Below are positions 34,479 through 44,394 of a stretch of DNA of 64,000 bases, in pieces (position 1 is the first letter of the stretch; the number at the start of each line of letters is the position of its first letter). Source of the stretch: Nitrospirota bacterium (GTDB lineage: Bacteria > UBA2233); contig WOZJ01000015.1 of the NCBI GenBank assembly GCA_011620345.1, positions 112 to 64,111 on the forward strand. Reading direction: 5' to 3'. Under the pieces are notes generated by a model, which saw nothing but the letters and a program-made list of their open reading frames with translations, searched no databases and was not told the origin of the DNA. The position numbers were made by a program, and so were the translations under genes.

Positions 34479-36044
<1,566 letters not shown>

Positions 36045-36332
36045 ACGCGGGCACCTTTTGATTGATTTAGGGTCGATTTCTTCTTGAACTCATAATAAAC
36101 GTTTTGTAAAGGCGTGTCAAAACGCCATACCATTTGATTGGGTTGCCGGCTTATGGAGCAAAAATACCAACGGCTCGGGCTCAAAGAGCTAGGCCTTTCT
36201 TGGCTGGGATAGAAAACGGAAATTCTTTCGAGATAGGCTTAGGTTGGCCAAAGCGGCGGGCTTCAAGCGTAACTTTTGGAATGGTATGATACGGATGCTG
36301 CATCGTCCTTCAAAAAAAGTGGGGTGCGTTTT

Positions 36333-37115
36333 ATGGGCATACGCAGGTGGTGCGTGGCATTTTTGGCGTCGCTTACCTTTCTTTTGGGCATAGGCCCTGC
36401 AACCGCTCAGGACGTTGGGGTCTATGCGGCCGCAGATCTGCAGCTTGCCATGCGCTCGCTGATCCAAGCGTTCGAACAAGAAAACCCGCAAGCCCACGTC
36501 AAGGTAACTTTCGGTTCGTCTGGCAAGGGCTACGCCCAGCTTGCCTCTGGAGCGCCCCACGATTTGTTTTTCTCGGCCGACATGGATTACGCAGAAAGGC
36601 TCGCACAAAAAGGCCTTACGCTTACCAAACCGAAACCCTACGGCCTAGGAAGGCTCGTCGTTTGGAGCCTGAGCGGCTCACAGGTTGATGTTTCCAAGGG
36701 GCTCGACGTGCTCCTTGCGCCAACAATCAAAAAGATCGCGATCGCCAACCCCGAGCACGCCCCCTACGGAAGGGCGGCCAAGGAAGCGCTGGAGAAAGCC
36801 GGGATGTGGGAGAGGGTTAAAAATAAGCTGGTCATCGCCGAGAACATCTCCCAGGCCGCCCACTACGCGCTAAGCGGGGCGGCAGAGGTGGGCCTTATTG
36901 CCCTGCCGCTCGCCTTGGAGGGTGAGCTTGCCCAAAAGGGGCGCTACGCCTTGGTTCCAGAGGAGCTTCACCGGCCGCTTATCCAAGGGTTCGTCGTCAT
37001 GAAACGGGCCGGAAACAACCCGGCGGCACTTCACTTTGCCGAGTTCATCGGATCGTCAAAGGCAAGGGAAGTTTTTTCTCGCTATGGGTTTGTGCTGCCC
37101 CCACTGGTTCCATGA
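36333..37115 (+). CDS. modA: Molybdate ABC transporter substrate-binding protein
   Basis: Signal peptide, AAADL, FGSSG, DLFFSAD, IAIANPEHAPYG and ENISQA; ATG 36333 chosen. Confidence 0.93.
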   Translation: MGIRRWCVAFLASLTFLLGIGPATAQDVGVYAAADLQLAMRSLIQAFEQENPQAHVKVTFGSSGKGYAQLASGAPHDLFFSADMDYAERLAQKGLTLTKPKPYGLGRLVVWSLSGSQVDVSKGLDVLLAPTIKKIAIANPEHAPYGRAAKEALEKAGMWERVKNKLVIAENISQAAHYALSGAAEVGLIALPLALEGELAQKGRYALVPEELHRPLIQGFVVMKRAGNNPAALHFAEFIGSSKAREVFSRYGFVLPPLVP

Positions 37116-37522
37116 ACCGAGTCCAAGGCCGCATCCTTGGGATCGAAGCGAGCGATGGCGTGTCGCTCGTGGACATCGAAACGGGCGGTGGAGCGATTTC
37201 TGCCGTTATTTTGGAAACGCCGGAAAGCTCGGAGTATATGAGACTTGGCGCCGAGGTGTACGTTTTGTTTAAAGAGACAGAGGTGGCGCTAGGCCTGGAT
37301 GCGGGCAAGATGAGCTACCTGAACGTGTTCGACGGGAAGGTCTCTGGCATGAGGTGTGGGCGGGTTCTTGCAGAAGTTGTCGTTTGGACGGCGGCGGGAG
37401 AAATCGTTTCCATCATTACGAAGCGCTCGTTCGAGAGGCTTGGCTTGAAAGAAGGGGCCAGGGTGAAGGCGGTCATCAAATCGACCGAGGTCGCGCTGCA
37501 GGGCCTTGGGGTACCATCATGA
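37112..37522 (+). CDS. Tandem TOBE-domain (molbindin-like) protein
   Basis: Two OB/TOBE repeats ending FKETEV and IKSTEV; SIIT..S..RLGL..G. Confidence 0.85.
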   Translation: MNRVQGRILGIEASDGVSLVDIETGGGAISAVILETPESSEYMRLGAEVYVLFKETEVALGLDAGKMSYLNVFDGKVSGMRCGRVLAEVVVWTAAGEIVSIITKRSFERLGLKEGARVKAVIKSTEVALQGLGVPS

Positions 37523-38181
37523 ACCTTACCCCGTTTTTTTTGACGTTCAAGCTGGCACTTTGTGCGACCGTCATTTTGACCGCAATAGGAATACCTGCCG
37601 CCCTTTGGCTGGCAAACAGGCGCTCGTTGCTCGCAAGCGGGCTCGAGGCCTCCGTTGCCCTGCCGCTCGTTTTGCCCCCTAGCGTGCTAGGGTTCTACCT
37701 CTTGCTCATGTTCCGCGCCGACGGGCCTTTCGGTGCAGTCTGGGAACGGTTTTTCGGGCATCCGCTCGTGTTTAACTTTGAAGGGCTTGTCCTTGCCTCG
37801 GTCGTGTTCGGGCTTCCTTTTATGGTCCAGCCGCTGGTTGCCGGCGTTCGCTCCATCCCGAAAGAGCTTATCGAGGCGAGCACCACGCTTGGCAAGCCTT
37901 GGTGGACGACGCTCGTCCGTGTCGTGTTGCCCAACATGAAGGCTTCGATCCTGACGGGCTGCGTGCTGGCGTTTGCCCATGCCGTAGGCGAGTTCGGCGT
38001 CGTCCTTATGGTCGGCGGGAACATCGAGGGAGAGACCCGCGTGGTGTCGCTTGCCATCTACGACGCCGTCGAAGCGCTCGATTACCGATCGGCCCATGTC
38101 TACGCCTCGGTGTTGTTCGCATTTTCGTTCTTGACGCTGCTTGCCGTGTACCGGGTCAACAGGAGGTTTTTTTCGGCATGA
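37519..38181 (+). CDS. modB: Molybdate ABC transporter permease
   Basis: LPLVLPPSVLGFYLL, FAHAVGEFG and GGNIEGETR; the track's N-terminal extension was discarded. Confidence 0.94.
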   Translation: MNLTPFFLTFKLALCATVILTAIGIPAALWLANRRSLLASGLEASVALPLVLPPSVLGFYLLLMFRADGPFGAVWERFFGHPLVFNFEGLVLASVVFGLPFMVQPLVAGVRSIPKELIEASTTLGKPWWTTLVRVVLPNMKASILTGCVLAFAHAVGEFGVVLMVGGNIEGETRVVSLAIYDAVEALDYRSAHVYASVLFAFSFLTLLAVYRVNRRFFSA

Positions 38182-39110
38182 TCGAAGCCCACCTCGAAAA
38201 AGACCTGTTCGGGGCTTCCGGCCCATTCCGTCTGAGTGTGAATTTTCGCGTTGATGACGGCCAATGTGTCACGTTCTACGGGCCGTCTGGTGCTGGCAAA
38301 ACGACCATTCTTCGGATGCTCGCAGGCCTGGAGACGCCGCAGGAAGGCTTTATTAGCGTAAACGGCGAATTATGGTTCGATGCAAGAAAGCGAGTCCTCC
38401 TTCCTTCCCGCAAGCGAAGAGTCGGGTTTGTGTTTCAATCTTACGCCCTGTTCCCGAACATGACGGTTGGTGAGAACGTCGCTTATGCGATGCAGAAAAC
38501 GTCAGCAGTAAAACTTGAGGACTTGTTGGATTTGGCAGGCATCCTCGAGCTAAAAGACCGTTACCCGAGCACGCTCTCCGGAGGCCAGCAGCAGCGCGTC
38601 GCGCTTATTCGGGCGATCTCCAGGGAGCCCATGATTCTTTTGCTGGACGAGCCGCTCAGCGCGCTAGATGTCTCAACGCGACTCGAGCTTCAAGACGAAA
38701 TTCTTAGAATCCACAGGCTTCTTGGTGCCGCAACGATTCTCGTAAGCCACGACAAGCAAGAGGTGTTCCGGATGGCGGACATGGTCCTTAGCATCAAAGA
38801 GGGCCGCATTCATGCGGAGGGCAGTCCAAGGGAGGTCTTCTTCAAGCGGCGCTTCTCCCCCAAGTTTGCCGTAACAGGCAGGGTGCTGGCGATCGAAAGG
38901 GCCGATATTGTCTTCCGTGCGTTTGTGTCGACCGGTACGGAAATGTTGCAGGTCATCCTTGGAGAACGCGATGCCAAACGTTTCAAACCGGGCGATGAGG
39001 TGCTCGTCGCCTCGAAGGCGTTCAACCCGATGCTTTTACCGCTCTTTGAACCTTTCGAGACGAAAGAGCTCCGGCAGGTATGCCAGGCTGGGGTTGGGTA
39101 CATAGATTAA
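38178..39110 (+). CDS. modC: Molybdate ABC transporter ATPase
   Basis: GPSGAGKT, LSGGQQQR, LLLDEP and VSHD; ATGA overlap with modB. Confidence 0.9.
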   Translation: MIEAHLEKDLFGASGPFRLSVNFRVDDGQCVTFYGPSGAGKTTILRMLAGLETPQEGFISVNGELWFDARKRVLLPSRKRRVGFVFQSYALFPNMTVGENVAYAMQKTSAVKLEDLLDLAGILELKDRYPSTLSGGQQQRVALIRAISREPMILLLDEPLSALDVSTRLELQDEILRIHRLLGAATILVSHDKQEVFRMADMVLSIKEGRIHAEGSPREVFFKRRFSPKFAVTGRVLAIERADIVFRAFVSTGTEMLQVILGERDAKRFKPGDEVLVASKAFNPMLLPLFEPFETKELRQVCQAGVGYID

Positions 39111-39740
39111 ATGGGCTACTTGAAAAGAATCGCGCTTATACCCGTCAAAAACTTCCGTACTGCCAAAAGCAGGCTTGCTGGCGTGCTTTCGCTTGGAGAG
39201 CGCCAAACGCTCGCTAACTGGATGTTTTGGAGGGTCCTTGGCCAGATTCGGCGCTCCGGGCTGTTCTCGGAAGCCGTGGTCCTCTCTAAGGGTTCCTTGC
39301 TTCAGGACTCCAAAGAGGGCTTTCCCGTGCACGTCGTCGAGCAAGACCCAAAGCTAGGGCTCGAAGAGGCGCTGAATGCCTACTTTTTAGAGAGCCCTTG
39401 GGCGGGGTTCGAGCATTTCCTTTTGCCCGCCGATTTGCCACTTCTCTCCCAAAGAGATTTTTGGGGTTTGATGCTTTGCCTTAAGAAAGAAGGCGCCGAG
39501 GGGCTCTTGGTCCCCTCGATGGACGGCAGGGGGACGAACGGGGTTTATCTAAAGAACCCCTCCGGCCAAAGGTTGGCCTTTGGCACGGACAACAGCCTTT
39601 CTGTTAACCGGGCAAGGCTCGAGCGTTCCGGGGTTCATCCTGGAACTTACTACAGCCTTGGGTTTGCCCTCGATGTGGATACAGAAGAAGACCTCCTGTG
39701 GGCCTTACACAACGGCCTTCCTTTCAGGGGGCTGGTGTAG
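39111..39740 (+). CDS. cofC: 2-phospho-L-lactate/PEP guanylyltransferase (F420 pathway)
   Basis: IPVK...AKSRLA..LS..ER, PADLP, DGRGTN, FG and DVDTEEDL. Confidence 0.9.
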   Translation: MGYLKRIALIPVKNFRTAKSRLAGVLSLGERQTLANWMFWRVLGQIRRSGLFSEAVVLSKGSLLQDSKEGFPVHVVEQDPKLGLEEALNAYFLESPWAGFEHFLLPADLPLLSQRDFWGLMLCLKKEGAEGLLVPSMDGRGTNGVYLKNPSGQRLAFGTDNSLSVNRARLERSGVHPGTYYSLGFALDVDTEEDLLWALHNGLPFRGLV

Positions 39741-39746
39741 GGACGT

Positions 39747-40502
39747 ATGGAAGTCCGTTTTATCGGCATTCCCCATCCATCCGATATCGAGGCTGGCGTT
39801 TCGTTGGTCAAGGAAGCCCTCGAGGCCTCGAGGCAGCAAGGGTATGAACCCAAAAAAGGGGCGATCATTGTCGTCAAGCTCAAGGCAATCTCCAAGGCGT
39901 TGGGCCTTTGGCTGGACACAAGCTCACTCGTGCCCTCGGCGTTTGCCCTTGCCCTTGCTGACCTCACGGGCAAAGACCCGGGGCTTACCGAGGCGATCCT
40001 AATGCACGCAAAGCGCCTCGTTCGCGCCAAGGAAGGGGTTCTCCTAGTGGAGACAAAATCGGGCATTGTTTGCGCCAACGCCATGCTTGACCGCTCAAAC
40101 ACGGGCCGGGGGCCAGAGTGGGTCCTGTGCCCGCCAGAAGACATCGATGCCGAGGCCAAGCGCTTTGGGGTCGCGCTTTCAGGGCTATTGGGCTTCCATA
40201 TTCCAGTGATTGTTTCGGATACGCTTGGCAGGCCCTTTCGGCTCGGCCAAACGGACGTTGCCGTGGGCCTTTGGGGGCTTGATCCTTTCTTTGATATGCG
40301 CGGGCGAAAGGACGACTACGGCTACCTCCTTAAAGACACCTGTATCGCGCTCGCCGATGAGCTCGCCGCAGGCGCGGAGCTGGCCTGCGGAAAGACAAAG
40401 GGAGTGCCTTTTGTTTGGGTAGAAGGGGTAACGTACGAAGAAAACCAGGAGGGTTCGGCAAGGCAGCTTGAACGTCCCTCCCATAAAAATCTTTTCCCAT
40501 GA
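39747..40502 (+). CDS. cofE: Coenzyme F420-0:gamma-glutamyl ligase
   Basis: KAISKA.G, GIVCANA..D.SN, VSDTLGRPFRLGQTDVA.G, D.RG.KD.YG and ADELAAGAEL..GK. Confidence 0.9.
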   Translation: MEVRFIGIPHPSDIEAGVSLVKEALEASRQQGYEPKKGAIIVVKLKAISKALGLWLDTSSLVPSAFALALADLTGKDPGLTEAILMHAKRLVRAKEGVLLVETKSGIVCANAMLDRSNTGRGPEWVLCPPEDIDAEAKRFGVALSGLLGFHIPVIVSDTLGRPFRLGQTDVAVGLWGLDPFFDMRGRKDDYGYLLKDTCIALADELAAGAELACGKTKGVPFVWVEGVTYEENQEGSARQLERPSHKNLFP

Positions 40503-41866
40503 CGGCAGTGAACACTGAAGCGCTCCCTTGGCCGCCCGAGAAACTTTTCAAAGAGCTAGAGCCTACCTTTGATGTTTCTTTGAAGCGGCTACAAAGCGGG
40601 CTTACGCTCGCCCATATCCACGACAACAAGAACGTTCGCGCCTGGGTGCGCGTCCAGTTTGCCCACGGCTCGTGTTCGGAGACGCCCGAGAACAACGGCG
40701 TGACACACCTGCTCGAGCACATGCTGTTTCGGGGCTGCGAACGTTACAAGGAGCCCTCCGACCTCGAAGCCGCATTCGAGGCGATCGGCGGGATGGCGAA
40801 CGCCTTCGTGGACGCGGAGCGTACGTGCTTCCATGCCCACTGCCATCCAAAGTTCCTCTTGGAGGCCCTCGGCATCTTCCAGGCCATGTTCGAAGCTCCG
40901 CTCTTTAAGGGCCTCGAGACCGAAAAACGGGTTATTCTCCAGGAGATTCTCGAGGACAAGAACGAGCAGGGCGAAGAGATTGACCCCGAGAATCTCCTGT
41001 ACGGGTTGATGTTTCCGGGTTCAAGCCTTGCCCTTCCGATTGCAGGAAGCCAGGCCAACATTGAACGGTTTACCAAAAAAGATTTGACTGCCAGGCTTAA
41101 AGAGCTCCTCGTCCCGGAAGGCACGCTCGTGACGGTGAGCGGAGACATAGGCTTCGAGGCGCTCGAGGCGTTCCTAAGCGATGGCTTCCCATTGCCCACT
41201 GCCAGGGCACGAGGCCCGTATGTCCTTGGCGACATGCCCACATCCGAGGGCTCGAAGCTCCTTATCCGCCACAACCCCCAAAGCCAGTTCGAGGTATGCA
41301 TGGGCTTTCAAGCTCCTGGCCCAAAATGTCAGGACGTGCTCAAGCTCCCGATCGTGCAACGCCTGCTCGCGGGTATGGGCAAGTCTATCCTCACAAGGCG
41401 GCTTAGGGAGGAAAAGGGGCTTGTCTACAGCTTGGATGCTTCCTTCAGCCTCCACAAAGGCGTAGGCGTCTTTCTCATCGAGTTTGCTACCTCGAAAGAG
41501 ACGCTCTTGGAAGCTATAGATACGCTGCTTTGCGAGCTGGCCCAATTCAAGGCGCAAGAAGTTCCCTGCGAGCTCTCGGATATGGCCAAGTTAAGCTGCC
41601 TCTATGACCTTTACTTCGAGCAGGACAGCCCGGAGAACGTGCTTGAGCACGTTTCCAGGGCCGTTCTGTTTGGAGTCCCGTGGCAGCCAAATACGTTTTA
41701 TCGTGCACTGCTCGAAACGACCCGTATGGATATCCAATCGCTTGCCAAGCGCCTTTTTTCCAAAAAAAACCTTCATCTCGTCATGGTCGGCCCATCGCTT
41801 ACTGGCTCGGACGACCTCAAAAGGGCTATACTAGAAAAAATTGACCAAGCCTTCCAGAATGAGTAG
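40499..41866 (+). CDS. M16 (pitrilysin) family zinc peptidase
   Basis: Inverted zinc motif GVTHLLEHMLFRG, NAF, EKRVILQEI and LREEKGLVY. Confidence 0.93.
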   Translation: MTAVNTEALPWPPEKLFKELEPTFDVSLKRLQSGLTLAHIHDNKNVRAWVRVQFAHGSCSETPENNGVTHLLEHMLFRGCERYKEPSDLEAAFEAIGGMANAFVDAERTCFHAHCHPKFLLEALGIFQAMFEAPLFKGLETEKRVILQEILEDKNEQGEEIDPENLLYGLMFPGSSLALPIAGSQANIERFTKKDLTARLKELLVPEGTLVTVSGDIGFEALEAFLSDGFPLPTARARGPYVLGDMPTSEGSKLLIRHNPQSQFEVCMGFQAPGPKCQDVLKLPIVQRLLAGMGKSILTRRLREEKGLVYSLDASFSLHKGVGVFLIEFATSKETLLEAIDTLLCELAQFKAQEVPCELSDMAKLSCLYDLYFEQDSPENVLEHVSRAVLFGVPWQPNTFYRALLETTRMDIQSLAKRLFSKKNLHLVMVGPSLTGSDDLKRAILEKIDQAFQNE

Positions 41867-41869
41867 CGT

Positions 41870-42577
41870 ATGATCGCCGTTGGTGTCAGTCTTTTGGCCT
41901 ACGTGGCCTTCGTTGTTTTGCTGCATGCCGTACTGGGCTGGGGGACCGTCGTTAGCCTGCTTGCTTCGCTTCTTCCTGCGCTTGCAGCCTTTGCGCTTAT
42001 CGGCCGCGTCGCTTCAAAGAGGCTCAAAACGCTGATCGATGCCGCCACAAACCAGGTCAAGAAAGGCAGCCTCGACAGGGCCGTGCAAACGCTAAAAGCG
42101 GACCAGGGGCTCAAAAGGCTTCACCCGCTCGTTGCAGGCCAAATCAACGCCTACCTAGGCATGCTGCTCTACATGCGAAGGGACTACGACGAGGCTGCAC
42201 AATACCTCAAGAAGGTACGGGTAGCCCACTGGAGCCCGAAGGTCATGCTGGCGATGGTCTACTTCAGAAGGCGTCAGACGGCCAAGATGGAGCAATCGCT
42301 CAAACGTACGCTTCGGTTCTACCGAAAAGAGCCGTTCATCTACGCCATCTATGCCTGGGCGCTCCAGAAGGCGGGCCAACGCGAGAAGGCCGTCTTGGTG
42401 CTCGAAAGGGGAATAAAGGCGCTTGGGAAGGACGAGCGGCTTTCAAGGGCTCTCGAGAACGTCAAGCAAGGAAAGCCAATCAAGATGTCTCGTTACGGTG
42501 AGCTTTGGTACCAGTTCGGGTTTGAGAGGCCCCCGGCCCAGCCTCATCATTCCTTCCGAAGAAAACCGAACGCCTGA
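41870..42577 (+). CDS. Membrane-anchored TPR-like hypothetical protein
   Basis: Two N-terminal TM helices, helical repeats (YLGMLLY..RDYDEA) and C-terminal YGELWYQF. Confidence 0.65.
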   Translation: MIAVGVSLLAYVAFVVLLHAVLGWGTVVSLLASLLPALAAFALIGRVASKRLKTLIDAATNQVKKGSLDRAVQTLKADQGLKRLHPLVAGQINAYLGMLLYMRRDYDEAAQYLKKVRVAHWSPKVMLAMVYFRRRQTAKMEQSLKRTLRFYRKEPFIYAIYAWALQKAGQREKAVLVLERGIKALGKDERLSRALENVKQGKPIKMSRYGELWYQFGFERPPAQPHHSFRRKPNA

Positions 42578-42587
42578 GGGTTATCCA

Positions 42588-43517
42588 TTGTTTCCAACGC
42601 CCGGCATTTCCCTGGCCAGGCTTTTTCTCTGGGCACGCCTCACGCTCGTCGCGCTCGGGATCGTCGGCTTCCTGGTGCTTGGCGTTCGGCTCGTTCGGAC
42701 CATTTTGGCCCCCATTCCCAGGGTTGATGTTCGGGCCTCTGGGCTCTCCGGCGCAACCCCGCTGCCTTCCTTGCCCAACGCTCCGCTCCTGGGTGCTAGA
42801 AAGCCCGTAGAAGACCTTGCCAAAGTCTTTTTGGTATCCAAGAGCCTGGATGTAGCCCTTGAAACGAGGGGACATTCCCCAGGGCAGGGTTTAAGCACAT
42901 CGTCTGAGCCCGGAGGGATCGGCGAAAAGCTGGGAATCAAGCTGTCGGGGACGGTTTCAGGGCCTCAAGCGCTTTCCTATGCCGTCATCCTGGATGAGTC
43001 TAAGGCCGAAGAAGCGCCTTACAGGGTAGGGGATACAATCAAGGGGGCCAAAGTCGTAGCGATCGAACCGCTCCAGGTCATCTTAGAGCACGAAGGGAGA
43101 AGGCAGGCGCTAAAAATGGAGTTCGATTTCGAGCAGTCGTGGGTTTTCAAAGAAGCGCCCCCGAAAATGCAGGATGAAAGGAAGCAGGAAGGTTCCGGCA
43201 GCGCGCTTACGATTCCACGGCAGGAAATCGAGAAGGAACTGGCCAGCCCGGATCGTGTCGCTCGTGAGGCAACCATGTTGCCAGCGTTCAAATCCGGAAG
43301 GCCGAACGGCTTCATGATCCTTAACGTTTCCAGGGGCTCCGTTTTTTCTAAGCTTGGGCTTTTAGACGGCGATATCCTTCAATCGGTCAACGGCCAGCCC
43401 GTAAATGAGGGCTTTACGCTTGCATCCTTGCTAGCGGACCTCAACCAGAAGGGTGAGGCTATGCTTGCGATTGAGCGGAACCTTTCTCCCCTGCGGTTGA
43501 ACGTGAAGCTCCGCTAG
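42588..43517 (+). CDS. gspC: Type II secretion system protein C (HR plus PDZ domains)
   Basis: One TM helix, KLSGTV...YAVI...Y.VGD.I.GA.V..I and PDZ LGL..GD.L.SVNG; start uncertain (TTG 42588). Confidence 0.8.
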   Translation: MFPTPGISLARLFLWARLTLVALGIVGFLVLGVRLVRTILAPIPRVDVRASGLSGATPLPSLPNAPLLGARKPVEDLAKVFLVSKSLDVALETRGHSPGQGLSTSSEPGGIGEKLGIKLSGTVSGPQALSYAVILDESKAEEAPYRVGDTIKGAKVVAIEPLQVILEHEGRRQALKMEFDFEQSWVFKEAPPKMQDERKQEGSGSALTIPRQEIEKELASPDRVAREATMLPAFKSGRPNGFMILNVSRGSVFSKLGLLDGDILQSVNGQPVNEGFTLASLLADLNQKGEAMLAIERNLSPLRLNVKLR

Positions 43518-44394
43518 GGTTGGAGTTTGAATAGAACAGCCACTTCAAGAAGGCCCGTGCCTGCTTAAGCGTTACAGGAACCTCTGGCCATGAAAGGCCC
43601 TTTTGCCGCTTGAGGCTTGAAAACGGCTTGCCCACATAAGGAAGCCTGAGGTTGGCCTTCTTTAGCAGGCCTTCATCCCGAAGCAGGCTATCCGACGGGC
43701 CCTCTGCCAGCACTTGTCCCTTGTCCAAAAGATAAACCCTATCGAGGAAGGACGCGGCAAGGTCCAAGTTGTGGGTCGTAACGACTACGGCAATATTGGA
43801 GCTCTTGGCAAGCTTTTTCAAAATTCTCATGACAGCTACTTCGCCCGCCGGGTCGAGCCCCTGGGTCGGCTCGTCTAGGATCAGCACGCTCGGGTCCATG
43901 ACAAGGAGTCCCGCGATGGAGAGCCGCTTCATCTCTCCAAAGCTTAGCGTGCGAACAAGCCTTTCTTCGAAACCTTCGAGCCCTACACGCTTGAGCGCGT
44001 TGAGCGCGCGCCCTTTGGCTTTTAGGGGGTCTACCCCAAGGTTTTTGGGGCCAAACAGTACGTCCTCTAGCACGCGGAACTCGACGACCTGATCGTTGGG
44101 GTTCTGGAAAACGAGACCCAACGTCCTGTAGAGCTCGCTATTTTTGTAGTTTTGGAGCGGCCTATCTTTGAGCCAAACCTCCCCTTGGTTTGGAGTCAAA
44201 AGACCCGAAAGGGCCCGAATGAGCGTCGTCTTTCCAGCGCCGTTCTTTCCGAGAATGCCTACGGCCTCCCCCGCACGAACGAAAAAATTGACTCCGCGAA
44301 GGGCGAAGCCCTTGGAAGTGTAGGCGTAGCCTAGATTGATGGCCGACAGCACGGGGCCTGGCGTTTCCTCTACAAGAGCCACGAAAGCGTCCAC
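43459..44394 (-). CDS. ECF transporter ATPase (CbiO/EcfA)
   Basis: GKNGAGKT, VFQNPNDQV, LSFGEMKR, ILDEPT and LRLP tail; GTG start at 44394 or 44382. Confidence 0.9.
   Translation of the reverse strand: MDAFVALVEETPGPVLSAINLGYAYTSKGFALRGVNFFVRAGEAVGILGKNGAGKTTLIRALSGLLTPNQGEVWLKDRPLQNYKNSELYRTLGLVFQNPNDQVVEFRVLEDVLFGPKNLGVDPLKAKGRALNALKRVGLEGFEERLVRTLSFGEMKRLSIAGLLVMDPSVLILDEPTQGLDPAGEVAVMRILKKLAKSSNIAVVVTTHNLDLAASFLDRVYLLDKGQVLAEGPSDSLLRDEGLLKKANLRLPYVGKPFSSLKRQKGLSWPEVPVTLKQARAFLKWLFYSNSNPSGASRSTAGEKGSAQSQA

Follow-up and report, generated by a model that had tools for sequence, protein, structure and literature searches.

Two genes for the side chain of coenzyme F420, cofC and cofE, stand directly behind the molybdate transporter gene modC in a 64,000-nucleotide (nt) stretch of a Nitrospirota bacterium genome (contig WOZJ01000015.1, assembly GCA_011620345.1; hereafter the window, whose numbering is used throughout). 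Does this junction tie F420 synthesis to molybdenum, and is the pathway incomplete, given that cofD is absent from the window? An earlier interpretation of the letters (the sequence-only reading) proposed either that F420 synthesis is co-regulated with molybdenum uptake in an unexpected lineage, or that CofC and CofE have been repurposed. The answer that we consider probable is an ordinary, dispersed F420 pathway, of which cofC-cofE was placed behind modC by a lineage-specific rearrangement, with no molybdenum–F420 logic. The oddity that is left is the divergent CofE; apart from this, the locus would be an unremarkable pathway with uncommon gene neighbours.

Completeness of the F420 pathway

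The source genome comprises 1.80 Mb in 72 contigs and is 96.8% complete; the window lies on contig C4. Gene names were assigned from the open reading frame (ORF) listing together with Pfam and NCBIfam profile scans, using curated cut-offs (Table 1). A genome-wide family search places cofD on contig C28 (TIGR01819, 320 bits; cut-off 257), and cofG (TIGR03550, 411 bits; cut-off 213) and cofH (TIGR03551, 462 bits; cut-off 374) on contig C70, where an FrhB-like gene lies directly after cofH. None of the three has a match on C4. With cofD, cofG and cofH all above their cut-offs on other contigs, the F420 pathway is complete but dispersed, being split over at least three loci: cofC-cofE in the window, cofD on C28, and cofG/cofH with the FrhB-like gene on C70. 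The sequence-only reading had described cofD and cofGH/fbiC as missing, which is correct for the window and incorrect for the genome; because these genes lie in the same genome, the apparent lack of cofD is an effect of the window boundary. A search by tblastn finds no second, canonical cofC or cofE elsewhere in the genome.

Contig C70 is only 4.2 kb long, and its membership in the genome was tested by composition, contig overlaps and relatives. Its G+C content is 55.2%, and its tetranucleotide distance is 0.0191, as compared with 0.0183 ± 0.003 for random 4.2-kb pieces of the genome, 33% of which are as far or farther. The first 55 nt of C70 are exactly the last 55 nt of contig C32, and positions 1–2365 of C32 are 97% identical to the end of a ~90-kb contig of the congener G001 (C54 end, L110), which stops exactly there. 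The close relatives of CofH form a ladder of 95, 90, 82 and 80% identity before falling to 56%, the 90% relative residing on a 171-kb contig. This ladder parallels those of CofC (99, 90, 84 and 66%, then 38%, with P0081–P0083 at 64–67%) and CofE (97 and 85%, then 45%). Composition, the C32 overlap, the congener match and the parallel ladders together speak against C70 as a mis-binned contaminant.

The bin of G001 contains cofC, cofD and cofE, and no match to cofH, cofG or an FrhB-like gene was found in it. Since the congener contig ends where the homology to C32 stops, this is an assembly or binning gap and demonstrates no gene loss.

F420-dependent enzymes and molybdenum enzymes

The sequence-only reading had called for a genome search for cofD, cofG/H and F420-dependent enzymes. 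Besides the pathway genes described above, the genome holds an F420-dependent LLM oxidoreductase (TIGR03617, 411.8 bits; cut-off 278) and two FrhB-like proteins, one encoded next to cofH and the other next to IOR/LutB-like genes. Fno (TIGR01915) was not found in the genome. The molybdenum enzymes are three, two of the dimethyl sulfoxide reductase family and one of the xanthine dehydrogenase (XDH) family accompanied by XdhC; a MocA-like cytidylyltransferase gene adjoins XdhC, and a MobA-like gene adjoins moaC.

Two candidate links between the F420 genes and molybdenum were considered and rejected. An F420-dependent formate dehydrogenase, an enzyme type mentioned in the sequence-only reading, would bring an FrhB-like subunit next to a molybdenum subunit. 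No FrhB-like gene in the genome adjoins a molybdenum subunit, as an F420-reducing formate dehydrogenase of the FdhAB type would require, and no other contig end overlaps that of C70; the best match to Fdh-alpha among the molybdenum enzymes reaches 247 bits against a cut-off of 666. The CofC-like protein as the organism's MobA is likewise dismissed, with only 22.1 bits to PF12804 (cut-off 27), and a stand-in is unnecessary given the separate MobA-like and MocA-like genes elsewhere in the genome.

The mod-cof junction and its distribution

The modC stop codon TAA (39108–39110) is followed with zero spacer by the cofC start codon ATG (39111–39113), and the cofC stop codon TAG (39738–39740) is separated by the spacer GGACGT from the cofE ATG at 39747, so that cofC and cofE share a reading frame. 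The abutment of modC and cofC and the 6-nt distance from cofC to cofE, both pointed out by the sequence-only reading, are thus read directly from the DNA. The start of modC, corrected here, is the ATG at 38178, which gives a 4-nt overlap with the modB stop. Position 39110/39111 is spanned by unitigs of three independent metagenome studies, and modC-cofC-cofE-M16 also occur in this order in the congener G001, whose CofE is 94% identical. The junction is therefore real and no assembly artefact. DNA nearly identical to that of the window was found in oil-field, hydrocarbon, marine-sediment, soil and sludge metagenomes (10 studies). The cofC-cofE spacer carries a 1-nt deletion polymorphism at 39743, seen in two metagenomes (marine sediment and hydrocarbon; a single contig in either) and located outside both coding frames.

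From modA to the TPR-repeat gene, seven successive tight junctions measure −4, −4, −4, 0, +6, −4 and +3 nt, with ATGA overlaps at modA/mop, mop/modB, modB/modC and cofE/M16. Such spacing is not peculiar to this locus: a gap of at most 10 nt is possible for ~49% of same-strand neighbour pairs genome-wide, a figure that is a rough ORF-based upper bound. An Rfam search of 35800–43800 gives no match, and no molybdenum cofactor (Moco) riboswitch, and simple scans of the string for sigma-70-like promoters and for terminators yield counts not above the shuffled expectation.

To see how far the arrangement extends, 80 CofE loci from other phyla, spanning 14 phylum-level groups and extending as far as ±6 kb if the contig was long enough, were queried with the window proteins. 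ModA, Mop and ModB are found near cofE in none of the 80, and the matches to ModC in these loci are generic ATP-binding cassette (ABC) ATPases without partners. By comparison, cofD is nearby in 49 and cofC in 31, mostly in the order cofD-cofC-cofE. A search of metagenome contigs for CofC loci returned two short, distant loci only. Shared with one congener and missing from all 80 foreign loci, the mod-cof order is lineage-specific and constitutes no evidence of molybdenum–F420 coupling. According to the sequence-only reading, two findings would together make the locus ordinary, complete cofD/cofGH genes elsewhere and a mod-cof order shared by many relatives; the first was obtained, and the second was not.

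The window differs from the cofD-cofC-cofE clusters of Acidobacteriota, Chloroflexota, Rokubacteria and Bathyarchaeia (loci L021–L100). These have the same three enzyme families, with cofC immediately upstream of cofE and a CofE lacking the FbiB nitroreductase domain, whereas the window has the molybdate ABC operon upstream in the place of cofD, which lies on another contig. Of eight long cluster representatives of CofE that were scanned, seven turn out to be CofC-CofE fusion proteins (P0324, P0325, P0328, P0338, P0348, P0382 and P0415), and their occurrence elsewhere marks cofC-cofE as a recognised unit. They share their domain order with the window genes, which are in frame and parted by a stop codon and 6 nt, but the latter are unfused and the window CofE is 37–42% identical to the fusions. 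The eighth long representative, P0423, has an F420_oxidored (Fno-like) domain fused to CofE.

The lineage consists of deep-branching, uncultured bacteria with compact genomes. Of the 40 genomes in the nearest-relative sample, 39 have only the domain in common with this one, the congener G001 being the sole closer genome; the remark of the sequence-only reading that F420 occurs here in an unexpected lineage is a fair one. A 2021 review lists as bacterial F420 holders Actinobacteria, Chloroflexi, Proteobacteria, Acidobacteria, Firmicutes, Nitrospinae, Rokubacteria, Tectomicrobia and Dadabacteria (PMC8498797).

Divergence of CofE and features of CofC

CofE is encoded by a single gene, has no FbiB-type C-terminal domain, and scores only just above the TIGR01916 cut-off (186.4 versus 180.65 bits). 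Its AlphaFold2 model (pLDDT 89) is matched by Foldseek to 2PHN, the CofE of Archaeoglobus fulgidus (TM 0.85; E 7.7e-25), while the next unrelated match has an E value of ~1. In a comparison with 1.84 billion cluster representatives, the next relative beyond its own cluster is 43% identical.

As the sequence-only reading had noticed, CofE reads KALG and NAMLD where its relatives read KAEG and NAG(V/I)D, and alignments of 80 homologues and of 149 cluster representatives confirm that these substitutions are real. Position 52, a leucine in the window protein, is Glu in 79 of the 80 homologues from other phyla and Gln in the remaining one; position 113, a methionine here, is Gly in all 80. Within the 149 CofE cluster representatives, Glu occupies position 52 in 119 and Gly position 113 in 142, and the combination of Leu and Met occurs in none. 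Two residues downstream of Met113 is the invariant Asp115, the counterpart of Asp109 in the alignment with A. fulgidus CofE. Retained are Ser49, Lys50, Gly53, Asp115, Ser117, Asn118, Asp158, Gly161, Arg162, Arg165, Asp204 and Glu205, which belong to the conserved active-site motifs SK.EG, NAG[VI]D.SN, D[TS].GR and ADE. The structurally characterized A. fulgidus enzyme (2PHN, 2G9I, 7ULD–7ULF and 8G8P) thus resembles the window CofE in its fold and in the residues equivalent to Asp115, Ser117, Asn118, Asp158, Gly161, Arg162 and Arg165, but the two are only ~31% identical, Glu47 and Gly107 of the former (alignment-derived numbering) correspond to Leu52 and Met113, and six further conserved columns differ.

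The CofE substitutions are retained in relatives at 85–97% identity. Relative to G001, the ratio of nonsynonymous to synonymous substitution rates (dN/dS) of cofE is 0.15, similar to the values of the neighbours modC (0.21) and the M16 peptidase gene (0.19). Purifying selection, the predicted CofE fold and the conservation of most invariant columns argue against decay of the gene. Across the 14 phylum-level groups sampled, no other CofE diverges as far in sequence, and this despite purifying selection.

CofC is also a single-copy protein, and its best matches in the PDB are 7P97 (E 3.7e-13) and 2I5E. In FbiD of Mycobacterium tuberculosis (Mtb-FbiD), the residues binding metal or substrate, i.e., Mg or phosphoenolpyruvate (PEP), are Lys17, Asp116, Thr148, Gly163, Ser166, Asp188 and Asp190 (PMC8764529). 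All of these are retained in the window CofC, which keeps Lys19, Asp108, Gly141, Asn143, Gly158, Ser162, Asp188 and Asp190, invariant in a 35-sequence alignment, and has Thr142 in the GTN motif. A lineage-specific insertion lengthens by one residue the stretch from the diagnostic Gly158 to Ser162, which binds the carboxylate. The Mycetohabitans CofC for 3-phosphoglycerate-type F420 (3PG-F420; 7P97) and Mtb-FbiD have the Mg-binding Asp, the Lys, the Thr of GTN, the Gly and the Ser in common with the window CofC. The 3PG enzymes, however, carry Ser at the diagnostic position, whereas the window CofC has Gly (the type for 2-phospho-L-lactate or PEP) in a loop that is one residue longer. CofC deviates at one column that is at least 95% conserved, and its dN/dS relative to G001 is 0.25.

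Origin of the arrangement and alternative explanations

In the scheme that we consider probable, modA-mop-modB-modC would encode a molbindin and a molybdate ABC importer of the ordinary high-affinity kind, supplying the molybdoenzymes of the bacterium. CofC would activate a C3 acid (phosphate) with GTP for the F420 side chain, and CofE would add the gamma-glutamyl tail. A lineage-specific rearrangement would have put cofC-cofE directly behind modC, and the result would be one long, translationally coupled string on the same strand, running through modA, mop, modB, modC, cofC, cofE, the M16 peptidase gene and the TPR gene, with transcription probably starting from the intergenic region upstream of modA.

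Several observations sit uneasily with this scheme. The divergence of CofE goes far beyond what one would expect of an ordinary enzyme: of the columns with a conservation of at least 95%, eight are altered (D39A, E52L, L58T, I100L, G113M, L129P, S136E and A209G), whereas 80 other CofE proteins have 0 such deviations at the median and 3 at most, and CofD of the same genome has 0. In a maximum-likelihood tree, the stem uniting the window protein, the congener and the 85% relative measures 1.44 substitutions per site, all other inner branches being at most 0.55. CofC falls 5 bits under the TIGR03552 equivalog cut-off (99.9 versus 105) and has the loop insertion. A dehydro-F420-0 reductase (of the FbiB C-terminal or FbiE type) or another source of the saturated lactyl side chain is not evident either, as CofE has no FbiB C-terminal domain (tblastn with FbiB proteins matches the CofE part only), no candidate of the MJ0144 type was found in the genome (TIGR00736, no match), and two stand-alone nitroreductases, candidates for a lactyl-group reductase, match TIGR03553 weakly at 41–42 bits against a cut-off of 249. 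Finally, both known species of the genus have retained the arrangement, which is weakly compatible with selection for the linkage, though these species are close kin. We infer that the string is co-transcribed and that the adjacency carries no specific molybdenum–F420 logic. That the pathway performs ordinary F420 synthesis is an assumption, because CofE is very divergent and CofC lies under its equivalog cut-off with a loop insertion.

Functional coupling, in which F420 side-chain synthesis would be co-expressed with molybdate uptake on behalf of an F420-using molybdenum or tungsten enzyme (e.g., one that is formate dehydrogenase-like or FrhB-coupled), draws on the tightly joined, polycistron-like string conserved in the congener, on the presence of two FrhB-like subunits and three molybdoenzymes in one genome, and on the molybdenum enzyme whose best, though sub-threshold, match is Fdh-alpha (247 versus 666 bits). 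But the FrhB-like genes adjoin cofH and IOR/LutB-like genes and never a molybdenum subunit, the C70 end overlapping no contig end; ModA, Mop and ModB are near cofE in 0/80 foreign loci; genes in this genome are closely spaced as a rule; and the F420 review contains no word beginning with 'molybd' (PMC8498797). Co-regulation with molybdenum uptake, as the sequence-only reading had it, would be possible through co-transcription, and what points to it is the adjacency; yet the string also holds the M16 peptidase and TPR genes, unlinked to either cofactor. We regard such coupling as unlikely. The same low probability attaches to a neofunctionalised CofC/CofE pair producing a modified deazaflavin side chain, with another C3 acid, activating nucleotide, amino acid or tail length. 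This idea would account for the eight CofE deviations (maximum 3 elsewhere, none in CofD), among them G113M near the invariant Asp115, for the stem of 1.44 and the 43% identity to the nearest protein outside its own cluster, and for the retention of the changes at 85–97% identity with a dN/dS of 0.15. It is also in keeping with the one-residue insertion in the CofC substrate loop (residue roles from PMC8764529) and with the separation of cofC-cofE from cofD. CofE, for which the sequence-only reading also considered repurposing, is a genuine outlier, but the genome, which has canonical cofD, cofG and cofH and otherwise the whole pathway as well as F420-dependent enzymes, contains no other cofC or cofE; CofE retains its fold and most of the invariant columns, and CofC all listed substrate and metal ligands, and neither Glu52 nor Gly113 is strictly invariant in the family (119/149 and 142/149). 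A combination of the two ideas, in which a remodelled CofC/CofE pair, with two near-invariant residues of the CofE active-site region turned hydrophobic (E52L and G113M), makes a non-canonical deazaflavin and is co-expressed with molybdate uptake in an almost unstudied phylum of oil-field and sediment habitats, would be improbable to much the same degree.

Least probable, and in our view very unlikely, is salvage of the deazaflavin precursor FO, according to which C70 would be mis-binned, the organism would have no FO synthase, and scavenged FO would be finished by CofC, CofD and CofE. The congener bin, with cofC, cofD and cofE and no cofH or FrhB-like match, has just this content, and cofG and cofH do reside on a contig of only 4.2 kb. 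Against this stand the typical composition of C70, its 55-nt overlap with C32, the 97% match of C32 to the congener up to the contig end, and the CofH ladder (95, 90, 82 and 80%), which parallels those of CofC and CofE.

The dispersed pathway adds one more deep-branching, uncultured bacterial lineage with a full F420 gene set, and it illustrates that pathway genes 'missing' from a single window can be a window-boundary effect. The CofE clade is a practical lead: it could show whether Glu47 and Gly107 (Archaeoglobus numbering) are needed in glutamylation, and it could reveal an F420 variant besides 3PG-F420. The molybdenum–F420 link matters only if co-regulation is demonstrated.

Features of the gene string and neighbouring observations

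The genes of the string are collected in Table 1. The N-terminus of ModA, which starts with the ATG at 36333, is signal-peptide-like. ModA and ModB equivalogs above their cut-offs, with an ATPase adjacent, identify the system as a ModABC transporter. Its gene set is that of modABC operons with Mop (TIGR01256, TIGR02141 and TIGR00638), modA, modB and Mop all exceeding their cut-offs. The window departs from such operons in that the molbindin gene lies between modA and modB, the string runs on into F420 genes, and no upstream Moco riboswitch was detected.

Table 1. Genes of the string from modA to the TPR gene, with window coordinates and the profile matches on which the names are based
Feature	Position	Strand	Evidence
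modA, periplasmic molybdate-binding protein	36333..37115	+	TIGR01256 187.5 bits (cut-off 62.5); PF13531 199.9 bits
Mop/molbindin, cytoplasmic, molybdate-binding, two TOBE domains	37112..37522	+	TIGR00638 81 bits (cut-off 55); PF03459, 2 stretches
modB, ABC permease	37519..38181	+	TIGR02141 modB_ABC 228.8 bits (cut-off 182.6)
modC, ABC ATPase	38178..39110	+	PF00005 116 bits; TIGR02142 212.7 bits, below cut-off 285; named by context
cofC-like guanylyltransferase	39111..39740	+	PF01983 61.5 bits (cut-off 22); TIGR03552 99.9 bits (cut-off 105)
cofC-cofE spacer GGACGT, 6 nt	39741..39746	+	sequence reading
cofE, F420-0:gamma-glutamyl ligase family	39747..40502	+	PF01996 157.2 bits (cut-off 25); TIGR01916 186.4 bits (cut-off 180.65)
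M16 (insulinase-type) peptidase	40499..41866	+	PF00675 88 bits; PF05193 63 bits; also present in congener G001
TPR-repeat protein	41870..42577	+	several TPR Pfam families; 3 nt after the M16 gene

Within modC, metagenome depth over 38544–38730 is up to 30-fold higher in the bin containing 38573–38605, the conserved ABC-signature part, and many loose ends are seen there. This peak is cross-mapping of ABC ATPases from other organisms and no feature of the locus. An M16-peptidase-like gene just downstream of cofE occurs in a single one of the 80 foreign CofE loci, from Rokubacteria (L069:6994–8094; 79 bits to the window M16 protein), and is probably a coincidence.

Contig C32 (L109:268–7367) carries a complex-I-like cluster of the Hyf/Ech type, composed of HyfB, NuoH-like, HyfE-like, HyfF, NuoD-like and NuoB-like genes, and joins C70 (L014, with cofG, cofH and an FrhB/FpoF-like gene) through the 55-nt end overlap. 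The placement of an FpoF-like subunit that binds F420 alongside a module resembling complex I suggests a bacterial Fpo-like F420H2 dehydrogenase. The second FrhB-like gene, on the minus strand of contig C61 (L015:7040–12407), is located between a gene resembling the alpha subunit of indolepyruvate:ferredoxin oxidoreductase (IOR) and genes for LUD-domain and LutB-like proteins of the lactate-utilisation type, a partner set that is unusual for an F420-binding subunit.

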